Source: Gemmatimonadaceae bacterium (lineage in GTDB: Bacteria > Gemmatimonadota > Gemmatimonadetes > Gemmatimonadales > Gemmatimonadaceae). From it: a DNA stretch of 38,610 nucleotides. The position numbers and the translations under genes are program-made. Below are positions 12,748-30,188 of this stretch, one piece after another; the first letter of the stretch is position 1, and each line of letters starts with the position of its first letter. The notes below the pieces were generated by a model, which saw only the letters and a program-made list of their open reading frames with translations, did not search any database and was not told the DNA's origin. Where the stretch lies: assembly GCA_040003335.1 (NCBI GenBank), contig JBDUCS010000001.1, forward strand, positions 1 through 38,610. The letters run 5' to 3'.

Positions 12748-14478
12748 ATGAGACTGACCGGAGCCCAGATCGTAGTTCGCGCGCTCGAGCACGAAGGTGT
12801 GCGGCTCGCGTTCGGCATTCCGGGCACGCACAACATCGAGCTCTACGACGCGCTGGCGCAGTCGAAGACGGTGCGCCCCGTGCTCGTGACGGACGAGCAG
12901 AGCGCCGGCTTCATGGCCGACGCGGCGTGGCGCGCCAGCGGTGTGCTCGCCTGCGTCAACATCGTGCCGGGTGCCGGCCTCACGCACGCGCTCTCGGGCA
13001 TTGCGGAAGCGTTCATGGATTGCATTCCGATGCTCGTGCTCGGATGCGGCATCCGGCGCGACACCGGCCGCGCGTTCCAGCTGCACGATGTCGACCAGTT
13101 GGCGATGGTCGCGCCGGTGACGAAGGCGGCGTTCCGGCCGGCGAGCGGTTCGGAGATTTACGCGACGATCCGCCGCGCCTGCCGGATCGCGCGCGACGGC
13201 GCGCCCGGACCGGTGATGGTCGAGATCCCGGCCGACCAGTACCTGTTTAAGCACGACGCACGCCTCGACGACGATCACGATCCCCTCCGCGCCGTCACCT
13301 CCGCGAACGCCGAGGAGCTCGACCGCGTCCGCATCCTGCTCAATCGCGCCGAACGTCCGCTTCTCTACGTCGGACTCGGCGCGGCCGGCGCGCGCGAGGA
13401 TCTTGTGCGACTGGCCGAGCGGCTCGAGGCGCCCGTCGCGACGACGTTTCAGGGCAAGGGCGTCTTCCCGGAATCGCATCCGCTCGCGCTCTGGCCGGGC
13501 TTCGGGGACGCCGCACCGCCATTCGTGCGCGCGATCGCCGCCGAAGGCGACGTGACGCTCGCCATCGGCTGCCGCTTCGGCGAGGTAGCGACGGGGAGCT
13601 ACGGCTTGCGCCCGCCCGGTCCGCTGATTCACGTCGACATCGACCAGGGCGTGATCGGCCGGAACTACGAGACGCGGATCGCCGTGCGCTCCGACGGCGG
13701 CGAGTTCGTTCGCGCGATCGTCGAGCGCATCTCGCCGCGGTCGCGCGACGATCCGCTACGCGAGCGGATCCGCGACGGACTGGCCGACGTGAAGAACGGA
13801 TGGCGCGCCGCCGCGAGTGGAACGCGCGTGTCGCCGTATGTGATGATCGAGGCGCTGCAGGCGCGCTTCGGCCAGGACGCGATCTTCACGACCGACAGCG
13901 GCAATGGGACGTTCATCGCGATGGAGGCGCTCCGGCTCGACGCGGCCGGCCACTTCCTCGCGCCGGTTGACTATTCGTGCATGGGATACTCGGTGCCGGC
14001 GGCGATCGGCGCCAAGCTCGCGCGCCCCGCGTCGCCCGTGATCGCGCTCGCCGGCGACGGCGCCTTCTTGATGACCGGCATGGAGCTGCTCACGGCCGCG
14101 CACAACGGCGTGGCCGTGGCCGTGTTCGTGCTGCGCGACCGCGAGCTCGCGCAGATCGCGCAGTTCCAGCGCACGGCGCTCAACACGTCGACGTGCAGCG
14201 TGCTCCCGGACTACAATCTCGCCGCCCTCTCCGCCGGACTCGGCGTCGAGTGCATCGTATTGAACAACGACGCGGAGCTCGACGGCGTGTTATCGACGGT
14301 CGCCGACGTGACGGCCGCCGGCCGCCCGATCGTCGTCGACGTCGCGGTGGATTACTCGACGAAGACTTTTTTCACGAAGGGCGTCATCAAGACGAACTTG
14401 AACCGGCTGCCGTGGCCTGACCGTTTGAGGTTTGTCGGTCGAGCGCTGTCGCGCAAAGCATTTGGCAACGAGCAGTGA
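12748..14478 (+). CDS. Thiamine diphosphate-dependent enzyme (acetolactate synthase large-subunit-like)
   Basis: 576 aa. The N-terminus [32 protein letters not shown] and the ThDP motif [24 protein letters not shown] match this family. Confidence 0.88.
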
Positions 14479-14536
14479 GCCGGGTTCACACTTTGCGAGT
14501 TCAGATCTTTCAACTGCGGAACCTGAGATTGCACGT

Positions 14537-15172
14537 ATGAACATCGACTCGATTCGCCGCGACTACGGACGCGCCGTGTTATCAGAACTGCAGGTCAACG
14601 GCGATCCGTTCGCACAATTTGCGGCGTGGATCGGCGAGGCGGTCGCCGCGCATCTGGGTGAGCCGAACGCGATGACGCTCGCGACCGCCGACAGCAGCGG
14701 CGCGCCGTCGGCGCGCATGGTGTTGCTGCGCGGGTTCGACGAGCGCGGCTTCGTCTTCTTTACCGACTATCGTAGCCGCAAAGGGCGCGAGCTCGACGAG
14801 AATCCGCGCGCGGCGCTCGTCTTCTATTGGCCGGAGCTCGAGCGGCAGGTGCGCGTGACGGGTGTCGTGTCACGCGCCACGCGTGACGAAACGGAGACGT
14901 ACTTCACGTCGCGGCCGGTGGGGAGCCGCATCGGCGCCTGGGCATCGCATCAGAGCAGCGTGCTCGCCTCCCGCGAGGAGATCGACGCGAAGTACGCCGA
15001 GCTCGAGCGGCGTTTCGGCGATGGCGACATTCCGGTTCCGCCGCACTGGGGCGGCTATCGCGTCACGCCCTCCGAGATCGAGTTCTGGCAGGGACGGCCG
15101 AGCCGGCTGCACGACCGCGTGCTGTATGCGCGCCGCGTCAACGGCTGGCGTATCGAGCGACTCTCTCCGTGA
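14537..15172 (+). CDS. pdxH: Pyridoxamine 5'-phosphate oxidase
   Basis: ORF 14432..15172 trimmed to the ATG at 14537. Canonical PdxH blocks: [36 protein letters not shown], and the C-terminal [21 protein letters not shown].....W.IERLSP. Confidence 0.92.
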
Positions 15173-15178
15173 GGTAGG

Positions 15179-15212
15179 GTGTCGCAAGTGGGGTGAGACC
15201 TACTCGCGACAC
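15179..15212. terminator. Weak hairpin between convergent pdxH and the HEAT-like operon end
   Basis: gtgtcgcaag / ctcgcgacac pairs 9 of 10 with a 14-nt loop. No clear U-tract. Confidence 0.3.
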
Positions 15213-15223
15213 GCGGCACCGAT

Positions 15224-16018
15224 TCACCTATCGAGTATCTCGCTGAACAGGGTCAAGGCCCGCGGGTCGTGGCTCTGGCCGAGCCAGAAGAGCGCCTTCG
15301 ATCGCACCTTTGGATTCTTGTTCGAGCGTGCGACTTCGAGAAGCGGCTCGATCCCCTCGCGGTGATGCAGCTGCGACAGCGCGAAGACCGCCGAGCCGGC
15401 AACATCTGTCTGATCGTCGTCGTCGTCGCCATCGCTGGTGAAGATGTCGCCGCCGTTCACCTTCGCCGCCGCCGCGCGGCCGAGCCAGAAGTACGCGGCG
15501 TCGCGCGTCGCGCGGGGGCGCGACGCCGAGTCGCGCGCGATCGCGAACAGTGCCGGCCACGGCGCGGCGCTGTCGGCGAGGATCGCCGGGAGAATCGCCT
15601 TCTCACCGACGCGGCCGAGCGCAGTGCGGGCGAGCGACAACAGGTAGTCTGATGCGGCGCGCGACGGGACAGTGCCCAAGTCGGTGACGTCACTCCGCTG
15701 GTCGCGGTCGGGGCCGACGTACGCGCGCACGTTGTCGACCTCGCCGCCGCGCACGCTCAACACGACGCGCACCGGGCCCGGCGCGCAGTTGGCGCGCCAG
15801 TCGCTGCCATTGAGCGAGCCGTGAAACTCACCGATGTAGCTGTTGCGGCCAGGCGAGATGTACGAGCGGCCGTCGCCGCACACGCCGGCGTGCGCGGCAT
15901 AGCGCAGCTGCACGCTGCCGTCACCGACGGCCTTGACTCTCTGCTCGATCGATTGCGCGGCGAGGGGCGCCGCAGCGAGCGCGATCGCGACGAGCGCGCG
16001 CGTAGGGTGCATGAGCAT
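15224..16018 (-). CDS. Secreted HEAT-like repeat protein (264 aa) with N-terminal two-Cys domain
   Basis: Signal peptide ALVAIALAAAPLAAQS. N-domain contains HAGVCGD ... CAPGPVRV ... VTDLGTVP. Three helical repeats: AAYFWLGR, AVFALSQ, ALFWLGQ. GAGGG lies 7-8 nt upstream of the ATG at 16018. Confidence 0.8.
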   Translation of the reverse strand: MLMHPTRALVAIALAAAPLAAQSIEQRVKAVGDGSVQLRYAAHAGVCGDGRSYISPGRNSYIGEFHGSLNGSDWRANCAPGPVRVVLSVRGGEVDNVRAYVGPDRDQRSDVTDLGTVPSRAASDYLLSLARTALGRVGEKAILPAILADSAAPWPALFAIARDSASRPRATRDAAYFWLGRAAAAKVNGGDIFTSDGDDDDDQTDVAGSAVFALSQLHHREGIEPLLEVARSNKNPKVRSKALFWLGQSHDPRALTLFSEILDR

Positions 16019-16028
16019 CGCGTCGCCC

Positions 16029-17318
16029 TCAGCGAGAGATCAAATCGGTGAGCATCTTCGTCACGCGCGGATCGTCCTTCTGCCCGAGCCAGAAGAGCGC
16101 TTTCTTGCGCATCTCGCGGTTCGCGTCGGTCCTCGCGATCGCCATCAGCTTGTCGACCGCCGCCGATTCGCTGCGCTGCGACAGCACGAAGATCAGGTGG
16201 TCCTTCACCTTTGGCTCCGTCGTCGCATCATAGGTACGCGCGAGGTCGGCGAGCGGCACGCCGCTCTGGCCGGCCCAGAAAAGCGCCTGGTTGCGCGCCT
16301 TGACCGTTTCGCGCTCGTCGGCGCCGACGGACAGCAGCCACCTCATCGCCTTGTCGTCGTGCGTCTGCGAGAGCGAGAAGAAGACGCGATCCTTGAGCGT
16401 CTCGCTGGTGAACCGCTTGTAACTCGACTCGAGGAACGCGACGTCGTCCGATGTCGGATCACCCTGGCTCAGGGCGAAGATCGCCTCACTCTTCACCTTT
16501 TCCGGCGTCGCGTCGGCCTCGATCATCGTGTGCAGCGCCTTCCGCGCCCGCGGGTCGTCGGCTTGGCCGAGCCAGAATGCCGCCTTGCCGCGCAGCGAAA
16601 CGTCGTCGGCGCCGTTCGCGATCTCGATCAGCGTCGTGACGCCGGCGCCGTCGGGCATCTGCGCCAGCGCGCTGACCGCGGCCTCGCGCAGTGATCGGTC
16701 GGCATCACCGGCCTTTGCCATCGCGGCGAGATTCGGCACTGCGGCCGGGCCGCCCGTCACGCCATACCAGAAGACGGCGCGGCGCCGCGTATCGCGCGGA
16801 CGATCGCCGTCGCGCGCCAGACGAAGAAAGCCGGGCGCAACCGTCGCGCTGTCGGCAATCGCCGCGGCGAGCATTGTCTCGCGCGCCGTGCGCGGCAGCT
16901 CGGCGCGGCCGGCCAGCGCGAGCATCGCCTGCGCCGCCTCGTTCGCCGGCACGGTGCCGAGGTCGGTGACGACGTCGCCGGACGACGCCGCGCCCCACGA
17001 GCCACCGACACGCGTGCGCGCCGCCGATAACTGGTGCCCGCTCATCGTCAGCTCGATGCGCGCGGGACCCGGTACGCATTGCACGCCCGACCAGCGGCCG
17101 TACGACTCCATCGACGGATAGATGTAGAGCACGTGCCCCATCGCCACCGTGTTCTTCGCATCGCCGCAGACGCCGGCGTGCGTCGCGTACGTCAGCCGCA
17201 CCACGCCATCGGGCGCCGATAGGATCCGCGACTCGACCGACTGCGCGGCGAGTCGCACGGCGAGAATGGTCATCGCCGCAGAGGCACGCAGCACGCAGTA
17301 CGCAGTGGGATGTCTCAT
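16029..17318 (-). CDS. Secreted HEAT-like repeat protein (429 aa) with N-terminal two-Cys domain
   Basis: ORF 16029..17630 trimmed to the ATG at 17318, which overlaps the upstream TGA (ATGA). The signal-like ASAAMTILAVRLAAQS is followed by HAGVCGD ... CVPGPARI ... VTDLGTVP. About 8 repeats with FW.GQ / FALSQ signatures. An alternative start at 17273 is possible. Confidence 0.8.
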   Translation of the reverse strand: MRHPTAYCVLRASAAMTILAVRLAAQSVESRILSAPDGVVRLTYATHAGVCGDAKNTVAMGHVLYIYPSMESYGRWSGVQCVPGPARIELTMSGHQLSAARTRVGGSWGAASSGDVVTDLGTVPANEAAQAMLALAGRAELPRTARETMLAAAIADSATVAPGFLRLARDGDRPRDTRRRAVFWYGVTGGPAAVPNLAAMAKAGDADRSLREAAVSALAQMPDGAGVTTLIEIANGADDVSLRGKAAFWLGQADDPRARKALHTMIEADATPEKVKSEAIFALSQGDPTSDDVAFLESSYKRFTSETLKDRVFFSLSQTHDDKAMRWLLSVGADERETVKARNQALFWAGQSGVPLADLARTYDATTEPKVKDHLIFVLSQRSESAAVDKLMAIARTDANREMRKKALFWLGQKDDPRVTKMLTDLISR

Positions 17319-18979
17319 TGGTTGATCAGCTCCAGCAAGAGCGTCTTCACGCGCGGATCGTTCGACTGGCCGAGCCAGAAAATCGCCTTCTTGCGCAGCT
17401 CCTTGTTCTGCTCGTGCTTCGCGATGTCGATCAGCTTGTCGGCGGCAGAGGACTCGCGCCGCTGCGAGAGCGCGAAGATCACTTGCTCCTTGATCTCCTG
17501 CTCCTTGAGCCCGTCGTACATCGCCGCGATGTCGCCGACCGACGTGCGTTTCTGCTGGCCGAGCCAGAAGATCGATTTCTTGCGCACCTCGAGCGGCTGC
17601 TTCGCGTCGGCGACCAGACCGACGAGCCACTTCCGGTCGTCCTCATTGCCGTTCTGCGCCACACCCATAATGACCTTCTCGCGCAGGTCGTCGCTCGACA
17701 GCTTGGTGTACAGCTCGCGAAGGAACGCCGAGGTCTCCGGCGAGCGGCGGCCGTTGCCGATCCAGAAGATCGCCTGACCGCGCAGCTCCTCGGAGGTGCC
17801 GTTCGACATCGCGAAGTCGCGCAAGAGCTGTTGCGCCCGCGGACTCTGGTGCTGCGACAGCGCGAAGATCGCTTTGTCCTGCAGCTGTGCGTCCTTCGAG
17901 TTGTGGAGCACCGAGTCGAGCGCGGCGAGCGTGCGCTCGCTCGGCACCTGCGACATCCAGAACACCGCGTCGCCACGCACGTCGCCGTCGGGATCGCGTC
18001 GTGCGACATCGAGCAGAATGTCGGCGGTCTCGTCGCTGTGCTTCTGCGCGACGAGGAAGACCGCCTTTTTGCGCAGCGGCTGCGAGCACTCGTCGCGCCG
18101 CGCCAGCACCGTCTTGAGAATCGGGAGCGCGCGCTCGGCGTCCATCTGCATCAGCGCGTTGAGCGCGGCGACCCGCACATCATCGTCGTCGTCGCCCGAC
18201 GGGCAGCCGGCGCTCGCGCTGCCACCGCGCCCACGGCCCTTCCCTTCACCGCGCCCCTTGCCCGTCGCCTGTTCGGCGACGTTCTCGGCGGCGCTCGCGT
18301 CGCCCTGCTTGGCGAGCGCGCCCTCGACACGCGTCAACAGCACGCCGGCGTCGCCGGCGACGGTCGCCTTAGCATGACGACGGCGCAGCGAGCGCAGCAC
18401 GTCCGTGGCGGTGCGCAGATTGTCTTCATCACCCGTGCGGAAGAGCGCAAAGGCCTCGAAGTACATCGCGTCGGCCGCGTACTGCGACTGCGGGTAGCGC
18501 TCGCTCACGCGATGAAAGAGCTCGGCCGCGCGCTTGAAGTCGTCGCGGTTGAGCGCCTCGCGCGCCGCGCGGTACAGGGAATCGGCCGGATCGTCGGGAT
18601 GCCGCTCGACGCGCGGCAGCCGCACCCGTGCGCCACGCGCGCCCATCCCACCGAAACCGCTGATGCCACTGAGCCCGCTCCACCCACTCAGCCCACTGAG
18701 CCCGTCGCCGATCGCGCCGAGCGACTCGAGCGACGAGAGGGACTCGAGCGAGGAGAGCGAGGAGAGCGAGGAGAGCGAGGAGAGCGACGAGAGGTCGACT
18801 GCCTGGGCGAGATCGCCGAGCGATGCGAGCTGCTTCAGGCTCGCCAGGTCGAGACGGCTGACATCGGCGCCGAGCCGCTCGGCCGCGCGCGCCAGATCGT
18901 CGACGCGAACGGTGCCACGTTGCGCCGGCATCGGCGTCGCGAGTGTCGCCATCGCGGCGACGAGATAGAAGGTCTTCAT
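17315..18979 (-). CDS. Secreted protein (554 aa): Ser/Leu low-complexity region, TPR-like segment and about 9 HEAT-like repeats
   Basis: Signal peptide MKTFYLVAAMATLATPMPAQ. GGGAGAG lies upstream of the ATG at 18979. The TPR-like segment YRAAREALNRDDFKRAAELFHRVSERYPQSQYAADAMYFEAFALF is followed by repeats carrying AVFWMSQ, AIFALSQ, SIFWLGQ, VIFALSQ and AIFWLGQ. Confidence 0.85.
   Translation of the reverse strand: MKTFYLVAAMATLATPMPAQRGTVRVDDLARAAERLGADVSRLDLASLKQLASLGDLAQAVDLSSLSSLSSLSSLSSLESLSSLESLGAIGDGLSGLSGWSGLSGISGFGGMGARGARVRLPRVERHPDDPADSLYRAAREALNRDDFKRAAELFHRVSERYPQSQYAADAMYFEAFALFRTGDEDNLRTATDVLRSLRRRHAKATVAGDAGVLLTRVEGALAKQGDASAAENVAEQATGKGRGEGKGRGRGGSASAGCPSGDDDDDVRVAALNALMQMDAERALPILKTVLARRDECSQPLRKKAVFLVAQKHSDETADILLDVARRDPDGDVRGDAVFWMSQVPSERTLAALDSVLHNSKDAQLQDKAIFALSQHQSPRAQQLLRDFAMSNGTSEELRGQAIFWIGNGRRSPETSAFLRELYTKLSSDDLREKVIMGVAQNGNEDDRKWLVGLVADAKQPLEVRKKSIFWLGQQKRTSVGDIAAMYDGLKEQEIKEQVIFALSQRRESSAADKLIDIAKHEQNKELRKKAIFWLGQSNDPRVKTLLLELINQ
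18748..18792 (-). repeat. In-frame 9-bp tandem repeat (gcgaggaga: four perfect copies plus one imperfect) encoding an SLS/SLE run
   Basis: Read directly on the + strand. On the coding strand it gives SSLSSLSSLSSLSSLESLSSLESL. Confidence 0.85.
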
Positions 18980-18993
18980 GGTCGTACTCTCCC

Positions 18994-19809
18994 TCAGCTG
19001 CCCACCGGCACGCGGCCGGCGGGGATGGTCGTACGAATGCGAGTCAGGACGTCGTGTCGGCTGATGGCCTGCTCGATCAGGTCGAAGTCAGTGGTGTCGC
19101 GAATGCCCCCGGGTCCGGGGAGACGCGCGATCTGCGCGAGCACGAGCTCGAGATCGCCGAGGAGCCGCTTGAGCTGCGGGTCGTCGCCGGCCGGCGAGTC
19201 GAGCAAGAGTTGCGTGTTGCCCAACAGGTCGCGGGCCCACTTGGCGACGTGCGCGTCGATCTGTCCGGCGCGCGCGTTGGAGCGGACGGTGGTGAGGAGC
19301 GCCTCGGTCTGCCCGAGATGCTGGAGCGTGGCCAAGCGGTACGGCAGCGCCGCGGCCGCGTCGATCTCCACGGGCGTGCGTTGGTCGACGCTGGAGACGA
19401 CGCGCTGCTCGCCGGCGCGATCGGTGCGCGGAGAGCGCGTGCCGGTCGAGTAGTCGTTGGGCACGTTCGGCGCGTGTGGCGCGCTGGACGTGGCAGTCCT
19501 CGTGCCGCGCGTCGTGCCGGCGCCCGTCGCGACGCTCGGCGTCGCGATCGCTCCGCCGGTCGACCGCCGGCCGAGCGCCACGCCGATCGCCAGCATCGCG
19601 GCCATGCCGGCGGCGATCGCCGTCCACCGCAGGAGGTGCGGGCGGCGCGCGCTCGCGATCGGCACCACGGTCGCGCCGCGCTGCGCGCCGCGCGCCGCAT
19701 CGATGCGCGCCCACATCTCGGCGCGCGGTGTCGCCGGCGGCGCGTTGTAGTCGCGCGCGGCGATGCGAAGGAAGTCGTCGAATTTGTCGTCGTTCTGTGT
19801 GTCGCTCAT
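18994..19809 (-). CDS. Single-pass anti-sigma factor (no zinc-binding motif) with helical periplasmic domain
   Basis: ORF 18994..20142 trimmed to the ATG at 19809, which overlaps the sigma gene TGA (ATGA). One TM segment, LLRWTAIAAGMAAMLAIGVAL. The position immediately after an ECF sigma gene supports the call. No HxxxCxxC motif seen. Confidence 0.7.
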   Translation of the reverse strand: MSDTQNDDKFDDFLRIAARDYNAPPATPRAEMWARIDAARGAQRGATVVPIASARRPHLLRWTAIAAGMAAMLAIGVALGRRSTGGAIATPSVATGAGTTRGTRTATSSAPHAPNVPNDYSTGTRSPRTDRAGEQRVVSSVDQRTPVEIDAAAALPYRLATLQHLGQTEALLTTVRSNARAGQIDAHVAKWARDLLGNTQLLLDSPAGDDPQLKRLLGDLELVLAQIARLPGPGGIRDTTDFDLIEQAISRHDVLTRIRTTIPAGRVPVGS

Positions 19810-20348
19810 GATGCCCACTCCCCGGCGAAATCGGCCAATGCGTCCCGCAGCTTGGCCCGTGCCCGCGACAACTGCGCCTTGCTCGTCCCTTCTTGGACGC
19901 CGAGCGCCGTCGCGATCTCTTCGTGCGTGTAGCCTTCCACGTCGTGCATGATGAACACCGTTCTGTAGCCATCGGGCAGCGCGTTGATCGCTTGCCGCAG
20001 CCGCACCTTCAAGTCCGGCTCGGCACGCCGCGATACGCCCGTCACCGCGTCGGCCGCGGAGATGTCCGTCTCGCGCGCGTTGATCCGCTTCACTTTCTTG
20101 AGCGCGTTGAGCGTCACGCTCGCCGCGATCGTGTGCATCCACGTGCCGAAGCTCGAATCGCCGCGAAATTCATCCAGCCGTCCGAACGCGCGAACGAACG
20201 CGTCCTGCGTGCACTCCTGCGCCAGCGCATCGTCGCCCGTGAGCCGAAACGCGAGGCGGTACACGCGGTCGACGTGCGTGTCGTAGAGCTCGCGTTCGGC
20301 CGCCGCGTCGCCGGAGCGAACGCGCGCGAGCAGGAGGTGTTGATCCAC
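19806..20348 (-). CDS. ECF (group IV) RNA polymerase sigma-70 factor
   Basis: 180 aa with a GTG start. Region 2: ERELYDTHVDRVYRLAFRLTGDDALAQECTQDAFVRAF. Region 4: LPDGYRTVFIMHDVEGYTHEEIATALGVQEGTSKAQLSRARAKLR. Confidence 0.9.
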   Translation of the reverse strand: MDQHLLLARVRSGDAAAERELYDTHVDRVYRLAFRLTGDDALAQECTQDAFVRAFGRLDEFRGDSSFGTWMHTIAASVTLNALKKVKRINARETDISAADAVTGVSRRAEPDLKVRLRQAINALPDGYRTVFIMHDVEGYTHEEIATALGVQEGTSKAQLSRARAKLRDALADFAGEWAS

Positions 20349-20396
20349 TCAGTCCAGTCTCTCGAGACTCGGTGCTCGTTCTTGCTTCGACCCTCT

Positions 20397-20423
20397 GACA
20401 GCGCCGTCCCCGCAAAGGGTTGC
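20397..20423 (-). promoter_or_regulatory. Possible ECF-type promoter (GCAAC-N19-GTC) upstream of the sigma gene
   Basis: Minus-strand gcaac (20423..20419) and gtc (20399..20397). Weak match, with spacing at the long end of the range known for ECF promoters. Confidence 0.2.
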
Positions 20424-20514
20424 GCGAACGCTGGCGCTGGAGCTCGGCGCATCGAAAGTTGCACGCATCGCGCACCGGCGGGCAGGGAGTCGCGGCCCGC
20501 AGGGCAACCGCCCG

Positions 20515-20542
20515 GAACACCGAACACCGATCACCGTTCACC
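20515..20542 (+). repeat. Heptanucleotide tandem repeat, four units (gaacacc gaacacc gatcacc gttcacc)
   Basis: Read directly. It ends 6 nt before the cobB ATG at 20549, in a leader without a Shine-Dalgarno. Confidence 0.8.
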
Positions 20543-20548
20543 ACGACG

Positions 20549-21316
20549 ATGGTACTCGAATCCGCTCGCGCTCTCCTCTTGGCCGCCCGTCGAATCGCCG
20601 TGCTCACGGGTGCGGGGGTCAGCGCCGAGTCGGGCGTGCCGACGTTTCGCGGCGCCGGCGGGCTCTGGAAGGGATTCCGCGCCGAGGATCTGGCGACGCC
20701 CGGCGCGTTCGCGCGCGATCCGCGGGCGGTGTGGGAGTGGTATGCGTGGCGCCGCACGCTGATCGACGCCTGCCGCCCCAACGCCGCGCACGAGGCGCTG
20801 GCGCGCCTCGCGCTCGACCGCGCTGGCGCGGTCACGATCATCACGCAAAACGTGGACGGCCTGCACGGCGCCGCCGCGCACGCCGCGGCGACAGAGCGGG
20901 CGGCCGAGTCGATGTCGGCGATGCCGCTCGAGCTGCACGGTTCGATCTTCGAGCTTCGTTGCACGCGCTGCGATTGGGTGGCCGAGCATCGCAGCTCGAT
21001 CGACGCATCGTCCGATGCCACGCTCCCCCGCTGCGCGCGATGCGGCGCACGCGCGCGGCCGGGCGTCGTCTGGTTCGGCGAGTCACTGGATGAGCGGCGT
21101 CTGGCGGCGGCACGCGAGGCGTGCGCGACCGCGGACGTCGCGCTGGTCGTCGGCACGAGCGGCGTTGTGCACCCGGCGGCCGGCCTCGCCCTCGTCGCGG
21201 CGCTCGCCGGTGGCGCGGTGATCGAGGTCAATCCGGACGAGACGCCGCTCTCGCACGCTGCCGCCGTCGTCATTCGCGCCAGCGCCGCGGCGACGCTGCC
21301 GGCCCTGCTCGCTTAG
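20549..21316 (+). CDS. cobB: NAD-dependent protein deacylase (sirtuin, CobB type)
   Basis: ORF 20420..21316 trimmed to the ATG at 20549. Motifs: GAGVSAESGVPTFRG, TQNVDGLH, LELHGS, Zn ribbon CTRC...CARCG, VVWFGE, VVGTSGVV. Confidence 0.88.
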   Translation: MVLESARALLLAARRIAVLTGAGVSAESGVPTFRGAGGLWKGFRAEDLATPGAFARDPRAVWEWYAWRRTLIDACRPNAAHEALARLALDRAGAVTIITQNVDGLHGAAAHAAATERAAESMSAMPLELHGSIFELRCTRCDWVAEHRSSIDASSDATLPRCARCGARARPGVVWFGESLDERRLAAAREACATADVALVVGTSGVVHPAAGLALVAALAGGAVIEVNPDETPLSHAAAVVIRASAAATLPALLA

Positions 21317-21408
21317 CGGCCTCCGACCGGCATGGATGCCGTGCGATGCCGGCGCCGAAGGCCGCACGGATCAATCCCCGTTCGCGCCGCAACATCCGCA
21401 GGAACGGA

Positions 21409-21436
21409 TTGACCAGCCAGAAGTATCTTCTATGTT
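21409..21436 (+). promoter_or_regulatory. Candidate sigma70-type promoter in the most AT-rich patch of the window, upstream of the Lrp/AsnC gene
   Basis: ttgacc (21409..21414), 16-nt spacer, tatgtt (21431..21436). The AT-rich tract 21421..21480 follows, as is typical for Lrp-family autoregulatory regions. Confidence 0.35.
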
Positions 21437-21483
21437 ATCCAGTGAATTCAGAACGTCATTCGGCATTTCCTCGATATCGGCGA

Positions 21484-21969
21484 ATGATCGACACGACTGA
21501 TCGCAAGCTCCTCGCCGCGCTGCAGCGCGATGCACGCGTCTCCAACGCCGAGCTGGCACGGATGGTCGGGCTCGCGCCGTCGGCTGTCTTCGAGCGAGTG
21601 AAAAAGCTCGAGCAGCGCGGCCTCATCGCCGGCTACGCCGCCCGCCTCGACCCACGCGCGCTTGGCGCCTCGCTCCTGGCCTACGTCTTCGTGCGGAGCG
21701 ACGAGCACGCCGGCAAGCTCGGCATCGCCAAACGGCTCGCGGCGATCCCCGAGGTGCAGGAGGTCCACCACGTCGCCGGCGAGGACTGCTACCTGATCAA
21801 GGTGCGCACGGCGAACACCGAGTCGCTCGGCGCGCTGCTGCGCGAGAAGATCGGCGCGTTCGCGGCCGTGCGCTCGACGCGGACCACGATCGTGCTCGAC
21901 ACCGTGAAGGAGACGCTGGCGATTCCGGTTCCGGCCGCATCCAAGGAAGGCCGCCGTGGGCGCCGCTGA
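21484..21969 (+). CDS. Lrp/AsnC family transcriptional regulator
   Basis: ORF 21121..21969 trimmed to the ATG at 21484. HTH: DRKLLAALQRDARVSNAELARMVGLAPSAVFERVKKLEQRGLI. It is followed by an AsnC-type ligand domain: EVQEVHHVAGEDCYLIKVR. Confidence 0.88.
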   Translation: MIDTTDRKLLAALQRDARVSNAELARMVGLAPSAVFERVKKLEQRGLIAGYAARLDPRALGASLLAYVFVRSDEHAGKLGIAKRLAAIPEVQEVHHVAGEDCYLIKVRTANTESLGALLREKIGAFAAVRSTRTTIVLDTVKETLAIPVPAASKEGRRGRR

Positions 21970-22867
21970 CCCCAAGCCGTCACGCGCGTCGCTCGTGACG
22001 GCGTTCGCGCTCATCTACGTCATCTGGGGCTCGACCTTTCTCGCGATCCGGTTTGCGATCGAGACGATTCCTCCGTTCCTGATGGCGGGCACGCGCTTCA
22101 TCGTCGCGGGGGGCCTGCTCTATGGCTGGACGCGCCTGCGGGGGGAGCCCACGCCGACACGGCGGCAATGGCGCTCGGCGGCGATCGTCGGCGCGGCGCT
22201 GCTCGTCGGCGGCAACGGCGCCGTGACGTGGTCCGAGCAGCGCGTACCGTCGGGCATCGCCGCGCTCCTCGTCGCACTCATTCCGCTCTGGATGGTGCTC
22301 CTCGACTGGTGGCGGCCGGGCGGCGCGCGACCGACCGGTGGCGTCTTCGCCGGCCTCGCGCTCGGGCTCGCCGGTACGGCATTGCTGGTCAGCGCGGGCG
22401 GGACCGACGCGGCGCACATCGATCGGCTCGGCGTCGTCGTGCTCGCCGTAGGCTCGCTGTCGTGGGCCTTCGGCTCGCTCTTCGCGCGCGGCGCCGACCT
22501 CCCGCGCTCCCCGCTCGTCGCCGACGCCGCCGAGATGCTGGCCGGCGGCGTGATTTTATTCGGGCTCGCGTTCGCGACGGGCGAGCATCGCGGCTTTTCG
22601 CTCGCCGCCGTCACCATGCGATCGTCGATCAGTCTCGTGTACCTGATCACGTTCGGCGCGATCGTCGGCTTCAGCGCGTACACGTTTCTGATTCGCTCGA
22701 CGACACCCACGCTGGTGTCGACCTATGCGTATGTGAATCCGGTGGTCGCGGTCTTTCTGGGCTGGGCGTTTGCCAACGAGCCGGTCACCACTCGCACGCT
22801 TGCCGCGGCGGCGGTGATTCTCGCCGGCGTTGCCATGATCACGATTTCGCGAGCGGTAAGAAGCTAG
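21956..22867 (+). CDS. EamA/DMT superfamily transporter
   Basis: 303 aa with about 10 hydrophobic segments. N-terminus FALIYVIWGSTFLAIRFAIETIPPFLMAGTRF is typical of EamA. The GTG start overlaps the Lrp gene by 14 nt. Confidence 0.85.
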   Translation: MGAADPKPSRASLVTAFALIYVIWGSTFLAIRFAIETIPPFLMAGTRFIVAGGLLYGWTRLRGEPTPTRRQWRSAAIVGAALLVGGNGAVTWSEQRVPSGIAALLVALIPLWMVLLDWWRPGGARPTGGVFAGLALGLAGTALLVSAGGTDAAHIDRLGVVVLAVGSLSWAFGSLFARGADLPRSPLVADAAEMLAGGVILFGLAFATGEHRGFSLAAVTMRSSISLVYLITFGAIVGFSAYTFLIRSTTPTLVSTYAYVNPVVAVFLGWAFANEPVTTRTLAAAAVILAGVAMITISRAVRS

Positions 22868-23039
22868 GGTCTTGGGGCTTTGGGCTAGGAACCGTTGGAC
22901 TTGTCCCCGAGTTCGCAGCGCCGAGATGCGGTCGGCGGCGGACGGATGACGCAACCGATCGGAATCCGCACTATTTTGCCCAACAGGGGGGCGGGCCCCC
23001 GCGTGAGCACGTGGGCGGTTCCCTGGCCGCCCCCAAGTC

Positions 23040-23957
23040 CTACCCCCTAGCTTTCTGCCCCACCAGATCCTCGAGCAGCCGCGAGTAGCTCTCGTATCGC
23101 GCCGCACTGATCTGCCCCTGCTCCACCGCGGTTCGCACCCCGCAATCCGGCTCCACCAAGTGTCGGCAGTCCCCGAACCGACACTCGCCGAGAAAGGGAC
23201 GGAACTCGATGAAGCACGCCGCGAGATCGTTCGCGTCGAGTCCCCACGTCCCCACTTCGCGCAGCCCCGGCGTGTCCATCACGTAGCCGCCGTTCGGGAG
23301 CGGGTGCATCTCGGCACCGACCGTCGTGTGGCGACCCTTGTTCACCGATTCGGAGATCTCACCGACGCGCAGATCGAGCCCCGGATAAATCGAGTTCAGC
23401 AGCGACGACTTCCCGACGCCCGACGGTCCCGTGAGCGCCGACACGCGTCCGGCCAACATATCGCGCAGCTCGTCGAGACCGGCACGCGTCTTCACGCTCG
23501 TATAGTGCACCGGATAGCCGATGCGCTCGTACTCGCCGAAGCGCGCCTGCGCCGCGCCATTGGCGACCAGCTCCACCTTGTTGACGACGATACGGGCCGG
23601 GATCTCGTTCGCCGCGGCAATGACGAGAAAGCGGTCGAGCATCCGCTCGTGCGGATCCGGCTTCGCGGCCGCGAAGACGACGATGACCTCGTCGATGTTC
23701 GCCGCAACGACGCGCTCGCCGTACGCGGTCCCCGGCGCGCGCCGCGCCAGCACGCTCCGCCGCGGAAGAATCGCCGAGATCGCCCAGCTGGCGCCATCGA
23801 CGCCCTCGATCTCCACGTCGTCGCCGACGGCCAGCTTCAGCGACTCGCCCTCGTTCTGCTTGAGCCGTCCGCGCATCGCGGCCTGTCGGATCTCGCCATC
23901 GGCAAGTCGCACATGCCACACACCGCCGGTGCCTTTGAGCACCGTTGCGCGGCTCAC
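23040..23957 (-). CDS. rsgA: Ribosome small-subunit-dependent GTPase A
   Basis: OB-fold N-terminus, circularly permuted GTPase (NKVELV, LTGPSGVGKSSLLN, DTPGLRE) and Zn finger CRFGDCRHLVEPDCGV. Start chosen at GTG 23957, which has GAAGGA 6 nt upstream and a GTGA overlap with the upstream stop. The ORF track start at 23981 is the alternative. Confidence 0.88.
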   Translation of the reverse strand: MSRATVLKGTGGVWHVRLADGEIRQAAMRGRLKQNEGESLKLAVGDDVEIEGVDGASWAISAILPRRSVLARRAPGTAYGERVVAANIDEVIVVFAAAKPDPHERMLDRFLVIAAANEIPARIVVNKVELVANGAAQARFGEYERIGYPVHYTSVKTRAGLDELRDMLAGRVSALTGPSGVGKSSLLNSIYPGLDLRVGEISESVNKGRHTTVGAEMHPLPNGGYVMDTPGLREVGTWGLDANDLAACFIEFRPFLGECRFGDCRHLVEPDCGVRTAVEQGQISAARYESYSRLLEDLVGQKARG

Positions 23958-24340
23958 GCCTCGTCCTTCATCACGTCCCACCAGCGTCGCGACGAGCCAC
24001 CCGACGCCTCGCGCACCAGCGCGTACAACAGTGCCTTGATCTCGGCGAGCGGCATCGCGCCGACGGCGCGAACGACATCGCCCTCGCTCGCGCCTCGCGC
24101 CAGGAAATCAGTCTCGAGATGCCCCTCGACCTTCTGCTCGCCGACGCGCGCCCAGCGCAGAAAGAGCACGTACGCACCCACCGGCGCCGCCGCATCGCCC
24201 GTCTCATCCGTGGCGATCTCGACGCTGTACGACATCCCGTCCGGCCCCTCGAACGCCACCGGCCGCGCGTGCACCGCCGCGTATCCGCCAACGGTCGACT
24301 CGTCACCCTTGGTGGGATCGGGAGGAATGAAGCGGCCCAT
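23954..24340 (-). CDS. Hypothetical protein (128 aa), translationally coupled to rsgA
   Basis: ORF with an ATG start and a coding-like amino acid composition. Its stop overlaps the rsgA GTG. I recognise no family. Confidence 0.6.
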   Translation of the reverse strand: MGRFIPPDPTKGDESTVGGYAAVHARPVAFEGPDGMSYSVEIATDETGDAAAPVGAYVLFLRWARVGEQKVEGHLETDFLARGASEGDVVRAVGAMPLAEIKALLYALVREASGGSSRRWWDVMKDEA

Positions 24341-27169: not shown

Positions 27170-28300
27170 TCAGCGAACGACGATCACGCCTACCGTTCCG
27201 TCGAAGCCGTCCGCAAACGCGGGGACGCCGGGCGGCGCCATCCACTTGCCGCCGTCGATGCGGATGGAGACGTGGTACGTGCCGGGCGTGATCGGCATCA
27301 GGAGCGACCAGTGGCTCCCGTCGGCCCGGGCGAGGGGCACGGGCTTCCAATCGGTGAAATCGCCCATCAGCTCCACGCGCGCGGCGCGCGGTGCATCGAC
27401 GCTGAAGTTCGAGTCGCCGTGATCGCCGGCGCCGAGCACGAAGGGACGCTGCTCGCGCGAGTGCTCGCGCGGCAGCACGCGACGCCGCTGCGCGCGAAGC
27501 CCGAGCCGCACGCCGAACGAGATCGTCGTTCCCGAGAGAAGGCCGCGCGTCGGATCCTCGGGCGCGCGCGCGAGCACTCCGACGAGCGCGGCGTGCGGCG
27601 CGAGCCACCACGCGCTGGCGAGCGAGCCCCAGCCGTTGAGCGCGCTCTGCGTCGTCGCGGTCCGCGCGCCGCCGGCCAGATCGACATCCACGCGCGGCCC
27701 CGACCACTGCAGCGCGCCGCCGACATCCGTGAAGGCATCGCGCGGCACGGGGAACTCGCCGCCGCGCAGCTCGAAGCGCGTGTGCGTCATGGAGAGGGTG
27801 ATCGTCGCCGAGCCCGCGCGGCGCCAGGCGCCGAGCCCACCGAGCACGATCTCACCCGCCGCGTCGTCGCGTCGCGCGTGGCCAAGGCCGCCTTCGAGCC
27901 ATAGACCGCCCTCTTCCTGATAGATATGCGCCCTCGCCACGCCGAGCTGCTGGCCCACCCGGAAGTGGTCCGCCGAATATCCGTCGGCGCCGCCGGCCAT
28001 CTCCCCGGCGACGCGCGCCGAGCGGATGGAGAGCGCCGGCGTGAATGCCGAACCGCCGACAAACCACTGCACGCTCGACGCGCCCTGCGCGAGCGATGCG
28101 ACCGATCCGCCCGCGTCGACCGTCGCGAAGTTGCGCTGATACCGGACCGACGGCGCGAGCACCGCGCCGCCAACCGCCGCGCCGCCCGCGTACTGCGTTC
28201 CGATCACGCCGGCCTCGACCGAGGGTGATACCTGCGCCGCCGACGGCGCGGCGAGCGCCGCGGCGGCGAACGCGATCGGAGCGGCGCGGCGGGATCGCAT
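27170..28300 (-). CDS. Secreted envelope protein: Gly/Ala-rich beta-like N-region plus C-terminal CBM48/AMPK-beta glycogen-binding-like domain
   Basis: 376 aa with signal peptide IAFAAAALAAPSAAQ. The C-terminus RVELMGDFTDWKPVPLARADGSHWSLLMPITPGTYHVSIRIDGGKWMAPP matches the GDF..W ... PG.Y.....DG.W pattern. The ATG abuts the upstream TAA. Confidence 0.75.
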   Translation of the reverse strand: MRSRRAAPIAFAAAALAAPSAAQVSPSVEAGVIGTQYAGGAAVGGAVLAPSVRYQRNFATVDAGGSVASLAQGASSVQWFVGGSAFTPALSIRSARVAGEMAGGADGYSADHFRVGQQLGVARAHIYQEEGGLWLEGGLGHARRDDAAGEIVLGGLGAWRRAGSATITLSMTHTRFELRGGEFPVPRDAFTDVGGALQWSGPRVDVDLAGGARTATTQSALNGWGSLASAWWLAPHAALVGVLARAPEDPTRGLLSGTTISFGVRLGLRAQRRRVLPREHSREQRPFVLGAGDHGDSNFSVDAPRAARVELMGDFTDWKPVPLARADGSHWSLLMPITPGTYHVSIRIDGGKWMAPPGVPAFADGFDGTVGVIVVR

Positions 28301-28954
28301 TTACGGCGACCGCGGCCTGCCGCTCGAGGTGAGTCCGGTCGTCGCCGGCCCATCGGCGGCCGCGCCGCCGACGACGCCCTGCGTGCGAACGGCGGCCGCG
28401 ACGACGAGCGGCGCGCCCGCGACGATGTCGCGCGCGACGTCGCGGCGCAGCGCGTCGAACGCATCGTCACCGGCGCGCGAGTTCGCGACGCGCAGAATGA
28501 GCTTCGACGCTGTATCCGCCGGCACGCCGCGCGCCACGATGTCGGCGAGCACGACGAGCGCGACGGCCAGCGCCTCACGCGGACGCGCCGCGCGCATCTT
28601 CGCGAGCGTCACCGGCTGCACGCCGGCCTGCAACGCGGCCGCGCCGGCGACGAGATCGGCCTGCGCCGCGGCCGGCCCGAGCGCGGTGCGCGCCGCGTCG
28701 AGCCGCGCGGCGAGCGCGCGCACGGCGACGACGATGCGGGCCCCGTCCGCACCCTTGCTCGCGCCCTCGAGCGCCTTGGCCGTCAGCGGCTCGGCCGGCA
28801 GTCCTTTGTCGCGCGCCGAATCGACGAGTGCGGCGACGGCTGCGCGCGTCGCCGGGTCGAGCCGCGCATCGAGCTGCTGCTGCGCCGCGCCGGCGCGCAC
28901 GCCGAGCGCGACGAGGGCGACGAGCGCGAGCGCCGGAATTCGCGCGCGCTTCAC
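28301..28954 (-). CDS. Secreted Ala-rich hypothetical protein (217 aa)
   Basis: Signal peptide IPALALVALVALGVRAGAAQ. The GTG start overlaps the anti-sigma TGA (GTGA). No recognisable family. Confidence 0.6.
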   Translation of the reverse strand: MKRARIPALALVALVALGVRAGAAQQQLDARLDPATRAAVAALVDSARDKGLPAEPLTAKALEGASKGADGARIVVAVRALAARLDAARTALGPAAAQADLVAGAAALQAGVQPVTLAKMRAARPREALAVALVVLADIVARGVPADTASKLILRVANSRAGDDAFDALRRDVARDIVAGAPLVVAAAVRTQGVVGGAAADGPATTGLTSSGRPRSP

Positions 28955-29517
28955 GAACCGCCCTTCCCGATCAGCACCACGGAGTTGCTCGACCCGAACT
29001 CGTCAGCCGGCGCGCTGGCCGCCGTCGGATCGGACACCCAGGTCCGGCCGTCGATGATGAATGCGTACTCGTGCCGACCCGGCGGGATCGCGACCTCCAC
29101 CGACCAGACGCCGGCGGCGGCGGGCTTGAGCGGCGTCGTGTCGCGGTTCCAGGCATTGAAGTCGCCGACCAGCGCGACCGACGTCGCGCGCCGCGCCACG
29201 TAGACGAACTGCACGCGCTGCGCGCCGGCGCTGGCGGCCGGCACCGCCGCGGGCGCGCGCGTCGGCGCGGTGCGCAGCTCGCGTCCGGCGATCACGGCAA
29301 TGACGATGGCGGCCGCGGCCAGCGCACCGATCGGCTGCACGCGAACGAGCCTCGGCCGGACGAGCCATCTGACCAAACCGCCTTGACGCCGCGGCGACTC
29401 GGCGGCCCGGACGGCGGACATCACGCGCGCGCGCGCCGCGGGCATGGGAGCGGGCGGCTCGCGCAACGCCGCGGCGACCTGCGCGATCAGCGCATCGTCG
29501 TATCGCTCGTCAGGCAC
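28951..29517 (-). CDS. Anti-sigma factor with periplasmic CBM48/AMPK-beta-like domain
   Basis: Start chosen at GTG 29517, which has GGGAGG 6 nt upstream. The ORF track start at 29541 is the alternative. One TM segment, IGALAAAAIVIAVIAG. C-terminal domain: SVALVGDFNAWNRDTTPLKPAAAGVWSVEVAIPPGRHEYAFIIDGRTWVSDP. Confidence 0.75.
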   Translation of the reverse strand: MPDERYDDALIAQVAAALREPPAPMPAARARVMSAVRAAESPRRQGGLVRWLVRPRLVRVQPIGALAAAAIVIAVIAGRELRTAPTRAPAAVPAASAGAQRVQFVYVARRATSVALVGDFNAWNRDTTPLKPAAAGVWSVEVAIPPGRHEYAFIIDGRTWVSDPTAASAPADEFGSSNSVVLIGKGGS

Positions 29518-30049
29518 TCGGCACCTCCCGCAACAGGTCACGCAGCCGCGCGCAGGCGCGCTGCACGCGCATCTTGAGCGCCGAGACTCCGACGCCGGTC
29601 ATCACGCTCATCTCTTCGTAGCTCAAGTCTTCCACGTGCTTGAGGAGAAACGCCTCTCGTTGCTCGGGAGCCAGCAGCACCAGCGCGCGCGCGAGCTCCT
29701 CGCGAAATCCATCCCACACCACAGCCGGCGCGGCCGCCGTCGCCATCATCTCCTCGCCAGCTACGATCACTCGCTCACGCACGCGGCGTCGCGCCGCCGT
29801 CGTGCGGCAGCGGTTGACGAGAATTCGAAAGAGCCAGGCGCCGAACCGCTCGCGGTTTTCGTAGCGCCCGAGCGATCGATAGGCGCGCACGAAGGCATCC
29901 TGCAGCGCCTCCTCCGCATCCTCCCGGTTGCCGAGCATGTTCACCGCGAAGCGCGCATACCGATCGTAGTAGCGCGCGACCAACAACGCATACGCCTCCG
30001 TATCCCCGCCGAGCACGCGCTGGATGAGAGCCGTGTCCGGAACTTCCAT
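29510..30049 (-). CDS. ECF (group IV) RNA polymerase sigma-70 factor
   Basis: 179 aa. Region 2: LLVARYYDRYARFAVNMLGNREDAEEALQDAFVRAY. Region 4: APEQREAFLLKHVEDLSYEEMSVMTGVGVSALKMRVQRACARLR. Confidence 0.9.
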   Translation of the reverse strand: MEVPDTALIQRVLGGDTEAYALLVARYYDRYARFAVNMLGNREDAEEALQDAFVRAYRSLGRYENRERFGAWLFRILVNRCRTTAARRRVRERVIVAGEEMMATAAAPAVVWDGFREELARALVLLAPEQREAFLLKHVEDLSYEEMSVMTGVGVSALKMRVQRACARLRDLLREVPSA

Positions 30050-30125
30050 ATAGAGCTAACTCTCGTTGCGGGTACTGGGTCACGCCAGCTCTCGACACTG
30101 GCTTTCCGTTCGCACTTCAGTACCG

Positions 30126-30153
30126 GGAACCGGGGTGTACCGTTGGCCGTTCC
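30126..30153. promoter_or_regulatory. Palindromic GGAAC-N18-GTTCC element between the divergent ECF sigma and Ser/Thr kinase genes
   Basis: ggaac at 30126..30130 and gttcc at 30149..30153. This reads GGAAC-N18-GTT on both strands, which matches the classic ECF -35/-10 pattern. Confidence 0.4.
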
Positions 30154-30188
30154 GTGCCCTGTGAACAGCGTTAACGTATCTTAAAGCC

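Follow-up and report, generated by a model that had tools for sequence, protein, structure and literature searches.

Extracytoplasmic function (ECF) sigma factors and their partner anti-sigma factors are among the main signaling devices of bacteria, and in most groups neither the input nor the accessory components are known. In the sigma-E envelope stress response of Proteobacteria, RseB sits on the periplasmic domain of RseA until an envelope ligand displaces it. In classical BlaR1, the sensor domain is penicillin-binding, and the known proteins with PBS-lyase HEAT-like repeats, from which the designed scaffold alphaRep is derived, are cytoplasmic lyases, adaptors and artificial binders. Here, we describe a cluster of five genes in a 38,610-nucleotide stretch of DNA from a Gemmatimonadaceae bacterium (positions 1 to 38,610 of contig JBDUCS010000001.1, assembly GCA_040003335.1; hereafter the window), in which the genes for an ECF sigma factor and a single-pass anti-sigma factor are followed by genes for three HEAT-like repeat proteins, in all likelihood exported, of 554, 429 and 264 amino acids (H554, H429 and H264). 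Since the same gene set recurs in several phyla, we regard it as a real, conserved and uncharacterized envelope-signaling module. It amounts to a defined and widely conserved parts list, consisting of a promoter motif, a sigma factor, an anti-sigma factor and two to three solenoids, in poorly studied phyla that are abundant in soil and sediment.

Results

Distribution of the Module

We fetched 81 loci and labeled all of their open reading frames (ORFs) with phmmer. The complete order, consisting of sigma factor, anti-sigma factor, TPR-HEAT protein and two beta-domain HEAT proteins, is present in approximately 20 loci from Gemmatimonadaceae with unrelated flanks; L001, L002/L003 and L004, for example, carry the five genes amid quite different neighbors. 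A four-gene form with a single beta-HEAT gene occurs in approximately 7 loci, mostly labeled Gemmatimonadales, and a sigma/(anti-sigma)/HEAT/HEAT arrangement is found in approximately 15 loci of metagenome-assembled genomes (MAGs) labeled Aminicenantes, Rhodothermales, Zhuqueibacterota and others. In these distant modules, the anti-sigma factor is a zf-HC2 protein and the first HEAT protein carries a YfiO/TPR domain as well. A search begun from anti-sigma homologs likewise reaches the HEAT genes (one locus, L083, stops at a contig edge), and a MAG labeled Gemmatimonas aurantiaca has the module (L039, L044). Synteny with ECF sigma genes in relatives, on which a preliminary description of this locus had made its reading depend, is kept across Gemmatimonadota and also in MAGs that are placed in other phyla.

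The features best conserved between phyla are the DLELVLxQIA motif of the anti-sigma factor and the terminal repeat, RKKAIFWLGQxDDPRA, of the HEAT proteins. H429 has more than 2000 homologs, of which those with an organism name are from Gemmatimonadota, and which are called "HEAT repeat domain-containing protein," "HEAT repeat protein" or "hypothetical protein." Members of the FWLGQ family are not always linked to a sigma gene, as orphan paralogs exist. In the papers searched in full text, no description of an ECF/HEAT-repeat module was found, and the main text of the ECF reclassification (Casas-Pastor 2021, PMC7826278) mentions neither HEAT nor Gemmatimonadetes.

Gene Layout

In the window, the five genes are packed like an operon (Table 1). 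ATGA overlaps join the sigma and anti-sigma genes (19806-19809) and the genes for H554 and H429 (17315-17318), and the anti-sigma/H554 and H429/H264 gaps are 14 and 10 nt long, each with a GGAG-like ribosome-binding site. Neither a sigma-70-like promoter nor an intrinsic terminator was predicted within 15000-20650, and it is this combination of tight spacing with the absence of internal signals that suggests a single operon. The coordinates, overlaps and gaps that the preliminary description gave for five co-directional genes on the minus strand were all confirmed, and its gene identities (an ECF sigma factor, an anti-sigma factor and three HEAT-like proteins) are upheld by Pfam, position and homology.

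Table 1. Predicted features of the five-gene locus, in window coordinates
Feature	Position (nt)	Strand	Details
Predicted ECF-type autoregulatory promoter	20393-20423	minus	GCAACC (-35), 17 nt spacer, TGTCAGAG (-10 region)
ECF sigma factor, group IV	19806-20348	minus	180 aa, GTG start
Anti-sigma factor, single-pass	18994-19809	minus	271 aa
Anti-sigma factor, predicted periplasmic helical C-terminal domain	19021-19347	minus	~residues 155-263, motif LLGDLELVLAQIA
H554, predicted exported TPR-HEAT protein	17315-18979	minus	554 aa
H554, parts			signal peptide 1-20; SL-rich linker; TPR 125-235; Gly/Lys/Arg/Asp linker; HEAT-like repeats 262-554
H429, predicted exported beta-domain + HEAT protein	16029-17318	minus	429 aa
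H429, beta domain	16941-17240	minus	residues 27-126, then 8-repeat solenoid 127-429
H264, predicted exported beta-domain + HEAT protein	15224-16018	minus	264 aa
H264, beta domain	15653-15955	minus	residues 22-122, then 3-4 HEAT-like repeats

The Sigma Factor and Its Predicted Promoter

The sigma factor consists of sigma-2 and sigma-4 domains alone, and its 180 amino acids agree with the ~180-200 expected of an ECF factor. Pfam detects Sigma70_r2 (58.5 bits, residues 21-88), Sigma70_r4_2 (68 bits, residues 116-167) and Sigma70_ECF, and the protein scores 96.4 bits against the NCBIfam sigma70-ECF model TIGR02937 (cut-off 42.9); none of the NCBIfam equivalogs scores above its cut-off. Approximately 45 nt upstream of the start codon lies GCAACCCTTTGCGGGGACGGCGCTGTCAGAG, an element overlooked in the preliminary description, which has the features of an ECF autoregulatory promoter (AAC at -35 and GTC at -10, ~16-17 nt apart) in the form GCAACC-N17-TGTC. 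In 26 of 28 homologous loci, CAACC-N16/17-TGTC lies ~43 nt before the sigma start codon, and the remaining two have GAACC. The strict pattern has a single match in the whole window, and a relaxed pattern matches 61 times in ~800 kb of loci versus 21 times in shuffles.

The same type of promoter is present at HEAT genes elsewhere. In 16 loci, a gene paralogous to that of H429 (39-41% identity) stands apart from any sigma gene, and 14 of these loci have TCAACC-N16/17-TTGTCAGAA directly upstream of this orphan. Because unlinked H429 paralogs carry the same promoter type, the idea that the HEAT proteins are regulon output, already raised in the preliminary description, is supported, with either this sigma factor or a very closely related one as the regulator. 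The orphan promoters are the best available evidence for it, alongside the position of the operon behind a conserved ECF promoter.

Other matches to the promoter pattern were less informative. L008 has a second site with no gene behind it. A scan of metagenomes with TCAACCNNTTN{11,13}GTTGTCAGAA gave 84 matches, approximately the chance number estimated from 18 specified bases; almost all were in low-GC contigs and none was ahead of a HEAT gene. The only high-GC match, in L161 (GC 0.66), is followed by a gene for a secreted 421-aa protein with a start that by eye resembles DUF4384 and a Tyr/Gly-rich tail. This protein may be a further regulon member or the match may be due to chance.

Two additional elements accompany these promoters. 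In the leaders (5' untranslated regions) of orphan paralogs (L015, L019, L021, L023, L028 and others), the ECF promoter is followed by a short palindrome, CCCGTG-N-CACGGG, which in one clade of sigma promoters (L036, L039, L040, L043, L044) overlaps TGTC at -10. This palindrome may serve as an operator or form a hairpin in the 5' RNA; it has no Rfam match, and neither Rfam nor tRNA scanning revealed an RNA element in the window or in the orphan-paralog loci. In 7 of the 16 orphan loci (L012, L014, L016, L024, L025, L027, L051), a DUF305 gene lies divergently upstream. A scan allowing one mismatch found a conserved CTACTATATGATAC in the intergenic region of six of these, ~100-200 nt upstream of the orphan (L014 had no match), which is possibly the DUF305 promoter. 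The neighborhood in L027 also contains DUF72, Ku and LigD genes.

The Anti-Sigma Factor

The anti-sigma factor has a cytoplasmic N-terminal region (residues 1-45), one hydrophobic, transmembrane (TM) segment (residues 59-81), a low-complexity linker and a helical C-terminal domain that would be periplasmic. Conservation in the protein is highest in this last domain, where W191, D204, S205 and L216-E221 are invariant. Pfam finds no domain in the protein, and the 1207 homologs are all unnamed and likewise devoid of Pfam domains. A profile search with the periplasmic domain found no relative in the PDB, nor does this domain match Pfam.

As the preliminary description had noted for this single-pass protein, it lacks the HxxxCxxC motif of class I zinc-binding anti-sigma factors (zf-HC2), which is also absent from 38 aligned homologs from Gemmatimonadota. 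In contrast, the motif is present in the module anti-sigma factors from other phyla, which are zf-HC2 proteins according to Pfam and whose profile matches RsiW (5wuq, E 1e-7), RslA and RsrA. When the Gemmatimonadota anti-sigma factors were compared with these distant zf-HC2 proteins using hhalign, the two sets matched with 98.2% probability (E 5e-14), although the match is confined to the last cytoplasmic helix, the TM segment and the periplasmic domain, the latter in its entirety and with the DLELVLxQIA motif. The window protein is therefore probably a zinc-less and N-terminally shortened member of the class I lineage with a family-specific periplasmic domain. By itself, the window protein matches only NF052375 in NCBIfam, at an E value of 0.002 and below the cut-off. 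The translational coupling implied by the ATGA overlap, together with homology, suggests that the anti-sigma factor binds and inhibits its sigma factor.

The Three Repeat Proteins

All three downstream proteins belong to the Pfam families HEAT_2 (H554, 89.6 bits in five stretches; H429, 58.2; H264, 29.9; gathering cut-off 27.7) and HEAT_PBS (43.2, 30.5 and 23.7 bits, respectively; cut-off 20.9), the units of which are two-helix repeats of ~31 aa. In these proteins, each unit has 31-33 aa, with R-x-K-A-x-F-W-L-G-Q units alternating with x-A-I-F-A-L-S-Q units, and this FWLGQ/FALSQ alternation is kept in all phyla examined. We counted eight repeats in H554 (nine with a unit at residues 268-293), eight in H429 and three to four in H264, which agrees with the alternating signatures and the approximately nine, eight and three units of the preliminary description.

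In all these phyla, the terminal repeat RKKAIFWLGQxDDPRAxxLxxEIL is found at the extreme C terminus of both HEAT proteins, and the C-terminal tail is therefore a hallmark of the family. The preliminary description had quoted the nearly identical terminal peptides correctly, but the tail is not peculiar to these three proteins, being the terminal repeat of the solenoid. Nor does the view of the three genes as a triplicated set hold: with pairwise identities of 34-38% (38% for H264 and H429 over the N-terminal domain and the first repeats), the proteins represent old, separate orthologous lineages rather than a recent triplication. The recurrence of the FWLGQ codons at the DNA level was confirmed, as the 13-mer GGCCGAGCCAGAA has five exact copies (15277, 15478, 16565, 17368 and 17557) and is absent from the opposite strand. 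Since this 13-mer is the reverse complement of F-W-L-G codons, it reflects the protein repeat and codon bias, and we rejected it as a separate DNA element.

Profile and structure searches returned generic HEAT_2/PBS repeats and no characterized family above cut-off. Against the NblB equivalog, the three proteins score 30.3, 22.3 and 12.2 bits (cut-off 300), and the score against CpcE is 14 (cut-off 330), which places them outside the phycobiliprotein lyases. A defense-system reading was also rejected, since PADLOC gave only weak, generic HEAT-ARM_XIII matches (30-34 bits to a model of 1972 positions) for H554 and H429; the sigma factor, the anti-sigma factor and H264 had no match.

Several observations argue that the repeat proteins are exported. 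The N terminus of each is positively charged, then hydrophobic, and ends in AQ, and N termini of this kind are conserved in 48 aligned homologs of H429 and in the orthologs of H554 and H264. The signal peptides in the high-GC genome of the window are weakly hydrophobic; homologs from low-GC genomes have textbook n-h-c signal peptides, such as MKNFKKIVFFLLLTLLLTLAPLAAQS. Export of H554, H429 and H264, as the preliminary description had claimed from their N termini, is thus well supported. An oxidizing, extracytoplasmic compartment would also fit the invariant cysteine pair of the beta domain and the position of this domain after the last TM segment in BlaR1-type proteins, both described below.

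In addition to its solenoid, H554 contains a TPR domain that the preliminary description had overlooked. Pfam detects YfiO at residues 125-205 (30.9 bits, cut-off 25) and also finds TPR_18 in this protein, and the matches of H554 in the PDB are alphaRep proteins and, at E 4e-5, BamD chains. Its scores fall below the NCBIfam cut-offs for TIGR03302 (39.8 versus 81.4) and TIGR02795 (52.8 versus 90.1), and the match covers only ~80 residues. With no cysteine after the signal peptide, H554 lacks a BamD-type lipoprotein signal.

The linker before the TPR domain, (SLSSLE)n, is encoded by a 9/18-bp tandem repeat (window 18719-18793, 7.3 copies, 85% matches). The length of this linker may vary, and the ortholog in L004 has a similar LESL-rich stretch.

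A Domain Shared with BlaR1-Type Proteins

A second domain overlooked in the preliminary description is shared by H429 and H264, in which ~100 aa with two invariant cysteines precede the repeats. In H429, these cysteines, C51 and C81, are invariant among 48 homologs. In a confident AlphaFold2 (AF2) model of H429 made with these 48 homologs (predicted local distance difference test [pLDDT] 93.6, predicted template-modeling score [pTM] 0.86), a signal helix is followed by the beta domain, with strands over residues 38-122, and by an uninterrupted alpha-solenoid over residues 125-428. Searched with Foldseek, the whole model finds only generic HEAT-like structures, namely alphaRep (4zv6, E 1e-6, the top match), deoxyhypusine hydroxylase, the C-domain of ERAP1, CpcE/F and importins. 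For the beta domain modeled alone (AF2, pLDDT 88.6), Foldseek finds no PDB match below E 0.001, and a profile of the domain has no match among PDB sequences. Nor did hhalign match the beta domain from Gemmatimonadota to the N-terminal ~170 aa of the second HEAT protein from other phyla, and we therefore claim no homology between these N-terminal regions across phyla.

When the beta-domain profile was compared with 1.84 billion representative proteins, 661 clusters were retrieved. Nearly all of the best 150 of these 661 have the domain at residues ~25-125 of proteins of ~100-500 aa, and the few that we scanned with Pfam contain HEAT_2 too. Three exceptions, P0298, P0312 and P0330, have ~1000 aa and an HExxH motif and are Peptidase_M56 membrane proteins of the BlaR1 type. 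In their extracytoplasmic C-terminal region, after the last TM segment, two copies of the beta domain are followed by helical repeats, and the gene for P0312 (L082:320-3786) lies directly after a gene for a BlaI-type Penicillinase_R repressor. Thus, the beta domain with its helical repeats is the external part of a second, unrelated family of signal-transduction proteins. This reuse in BlaR1-type sensors argues that the beta-domain/repeat unit binds something outside the cytoplasm. The BlaR1-type architecture with two beta domains and repeats appears to be undescribed.

One further protein, P0313 (891 aa), was considered as a "Rosetta-stone" fusion of the TPR-HEAT and beta-HEAT proteins. We rejected it because residues 290-480 are Arg-rich and look out of frame; it is most likely an assembly frameshift joining two adjacent genes.

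Neighboring Genes

The flanks of the locus (examined over window 12748-15172 and 20420-24107) are partly syntenic with those of other loci. On one side, genes for a TPP enzyme, PNPOx, a GMC oxidoreductase and a VIT-VWA protein match L004; on the other, genes for RsgA and proline dehydrogenase are present as in L085. SIR2, AsnC and EamA genes lie on this second side too.

The window also contains a second, unrelated ECF module (27173-32513), the sigma factor of which (29513-30055, minus strand) is 30% identical to the first. The next ORF (~29002-29510) appears to encode a membrane protein with a CBM48/AMPK-like domain of the glycogen-binding type at its end, and is followed by genes for a 233-aa protein with no Pfam match (28304-29002) and a CBM_48 protein (27173-28300). 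A gene for a Ser/Thr kinase with TPR repeats (30189-32513) is divergent from this module.

Discussion

How might exported solenoids and an ECF sigma/anti-sigma pair work together? The model that we favor is that of an autoregulated envelope-signaling operon in which the solenoids are both a product of the sigma factor and partners of the anti-sigma factor. At rest, the membrane-bound anti-sigma factor would hold the sigma factor, while one or more exported solenoids would bind and shield the periplasmic domain that the anti-sigma factor carries on its long flexible linker. An envelope-derived ligand, captured via the TPR and beta-domain ends, would titrate the solenoids away. Inactivation of the anti-sigma factor would follow, most likely through regulated proteolysis like that of RsiW or RseA. 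Once released, the sigma factor would transcribe its own operon and the unlinked paralog, and the newly made solenoids could both handle the ligand and silence the anti-sigma factor again, a negative feedback like that of RseB or CpxP. We put the chances of this model as a whole at about even. The possible gating of the anti-sigma factor by the solenoids, the other reading raised in the preliminary description, is supported only indirectly, by the conservation of the HEAT proteins together with the anti-sigma periplasmic domain and by the reuse of the domain pair in BlaR1-type sensors. A core set of sigma factor, anti-sigma factor, TPR-HEAT protein and second HEAT protein is co-conserved in Gemmatimonadota and in MAGs labeled Aminicenantes, Rhodothermales and Zhuqueibacterota.

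Several points weigh against the model. Co-conservation within one operon is also expected of genes that are simply members of the regulon. The anti-sigma factor of the window has a very short cytoplasmic region (~45 conserved residues) in addition to lacking a zinc motif, and no protease gene is linked to the operon. The AF2 models are of single chains, and the contact between solenoid and anti-sigma factor and the ligand are hypothetical parts of the model. The operon itself is deduced from gene spacing and the absence of internal signals, and the coexistence of operon and orphan paralog in one genome is likewise hypothetical, as the loci are all on fragmentary MAG contigs.

The main alternative is that the HEAT proteins are output only. 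In this case, the sigma and anti-sigma factors would sense alone or via unlinked factors, and the HEAT proteins would be effectors, such as periplasmic scaffolds or chaperone-like binders, that exert no feedback. HEAT genes behind an ECF promoter, with the same promoter at unlinked paralogs, are a classic regulon signature, and the BamD/YbgF-like TPR domain of H554 is of a kind known from envelope assembly proteins. However, the tie of the HEAT genes to one specific anti-sigma periplasmic domain persists across phyla, which would be unusual for mere targets, and the use of the beta-domain/HEAT unit as the external domain of BlaR1-type proteins points to sensing or binding. We therefore regard this alternative as possible, but would not expect it to prove correct.

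It could also be that the HEAT proteins are solely upstream ligand receptors that signal to the anti-sigma factor in the style of FecA-FecR-FecI, with the true regulon located elsewhere. Such a role would accord with the reuse of the domain pair in BlaR1-like sensors, with the long flexible periplasmic linker of the anti-sigma factor and with the resemblance of the H554 TPR domain to that of BamD, which is outer-membrane-associated. We nevertheless consider it improbable: the orphan paralogs carry the ECF promoter, so that at least this member of the family is itself a target, there is no other promoter match in the window, and Pfam detects neither a TonB-dependent transducer nor a FecR domain. 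Finally, although HEAT_2 is a very broad Pfam family and the signal peptides in the window are weakly hydrophobic, the notion that generic cytoplasmic HEAT proteins with mis-called signal peptides happen to lie downstream of an ECF pair is essentially excluded by a gene order that is shared by dozens of loci whose flanks are unrelated and by MAGs of several phyla, by the clear n-h-c signal peptides of low-GC homologs, by the invariant cysteine pair and by the presence of the same domains after the last TM segment of BlaR1-like proteins.

If the solenoids do gate the anti-sigma factor, a repeat-protein receptor would be added to the known controls of ECF sigma factors, and a role for exported HEAT-like proteins in bacteria would become visible. 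The module also links exported solenoids to a second signaling chassis, the BlaR1-type protease. A broader and more speculative idea, which we think unlikely to hold in full, is that exported FWLGQ HEAT solenoids constitute an unrecognized class of periplasmic receptors or adaptors shared by Gemmatimonadota, Acidobacteriota and Bacteroidota-related phyla, which would dock on the helical domain of the anti-sigma factor in some cases and be fused to BlaR1 in others, and which would convert ligand capture into transcription, the beta domain being the ligand-binding end.

Comparison with Known Systems

The preliminary description could not assign the module to any characterized signaling or envelope system, and this assessment stands, as comparisons with RseB, NblB, CpcE, BamD, YbgF and PADLOC models revealed no membership. 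There are, however, partial likenesses to several systems. The TPR domain of H554 matches YfiO and BamD chains and thus recalls BamD (YfiO) and CpoB (YbgF), but H554 is an ortholog of neither, since this domain is fused to a HEAT solenoid and there is no lipobox cysteine. In repeat type and in the repeat length of ~31 aa, the solenoids resemble the PBS-lyase HEAT-like proteins (CpcE/CpcF, NblB and E. coli YibA) and alphaRep; they differ in being apparently exported, in alternating FWLGQ and FALSQ units and in having TPR or beta-domain modules at their N termini.

The likeness to BlaR1/MecR1-BlaI lies in the beta-domain/repeat unit of H429 and H264, which is found twice in the extracytoplasmic part of M56 proteins and next to a Penicillinase_R gene, whereas the window has neither an M56 protease nor a BlaI-type repressor. 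With the sigma-W/RsiW system, the module apparently shares an anti-sigma lineage: the anti-sigma factors of distant modules match the N-terminal domain of RsiW, and the window protein aligns with these distant factors from the helix preceding the TM segment onward. Unlike RsiW, the window protein is without the HxxxCxxC helices and has a different extracytoplasmic domain, and no PrsW or RasP genes are linked to it.

The module is most like rpoE-rseA-rseB-rseC, in which an autoregulated ECF operon likewise encodes a single-pass anti-sigma factor and then one or more exported accessory proteins. Pfam finds no MucB_RseB or RseC domain in the five window proteins, which therefore do not include a member of the RseB type, and the periplasmic domain of the anti-sigma factor is unrelated to that of the rpoE system, having no Pfam or PDB relative. 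The place of the accessory proteins is taken by two to three HEAT-like solenoids, for which RseB-type gating, as a functional analogy alone, provides the working model.

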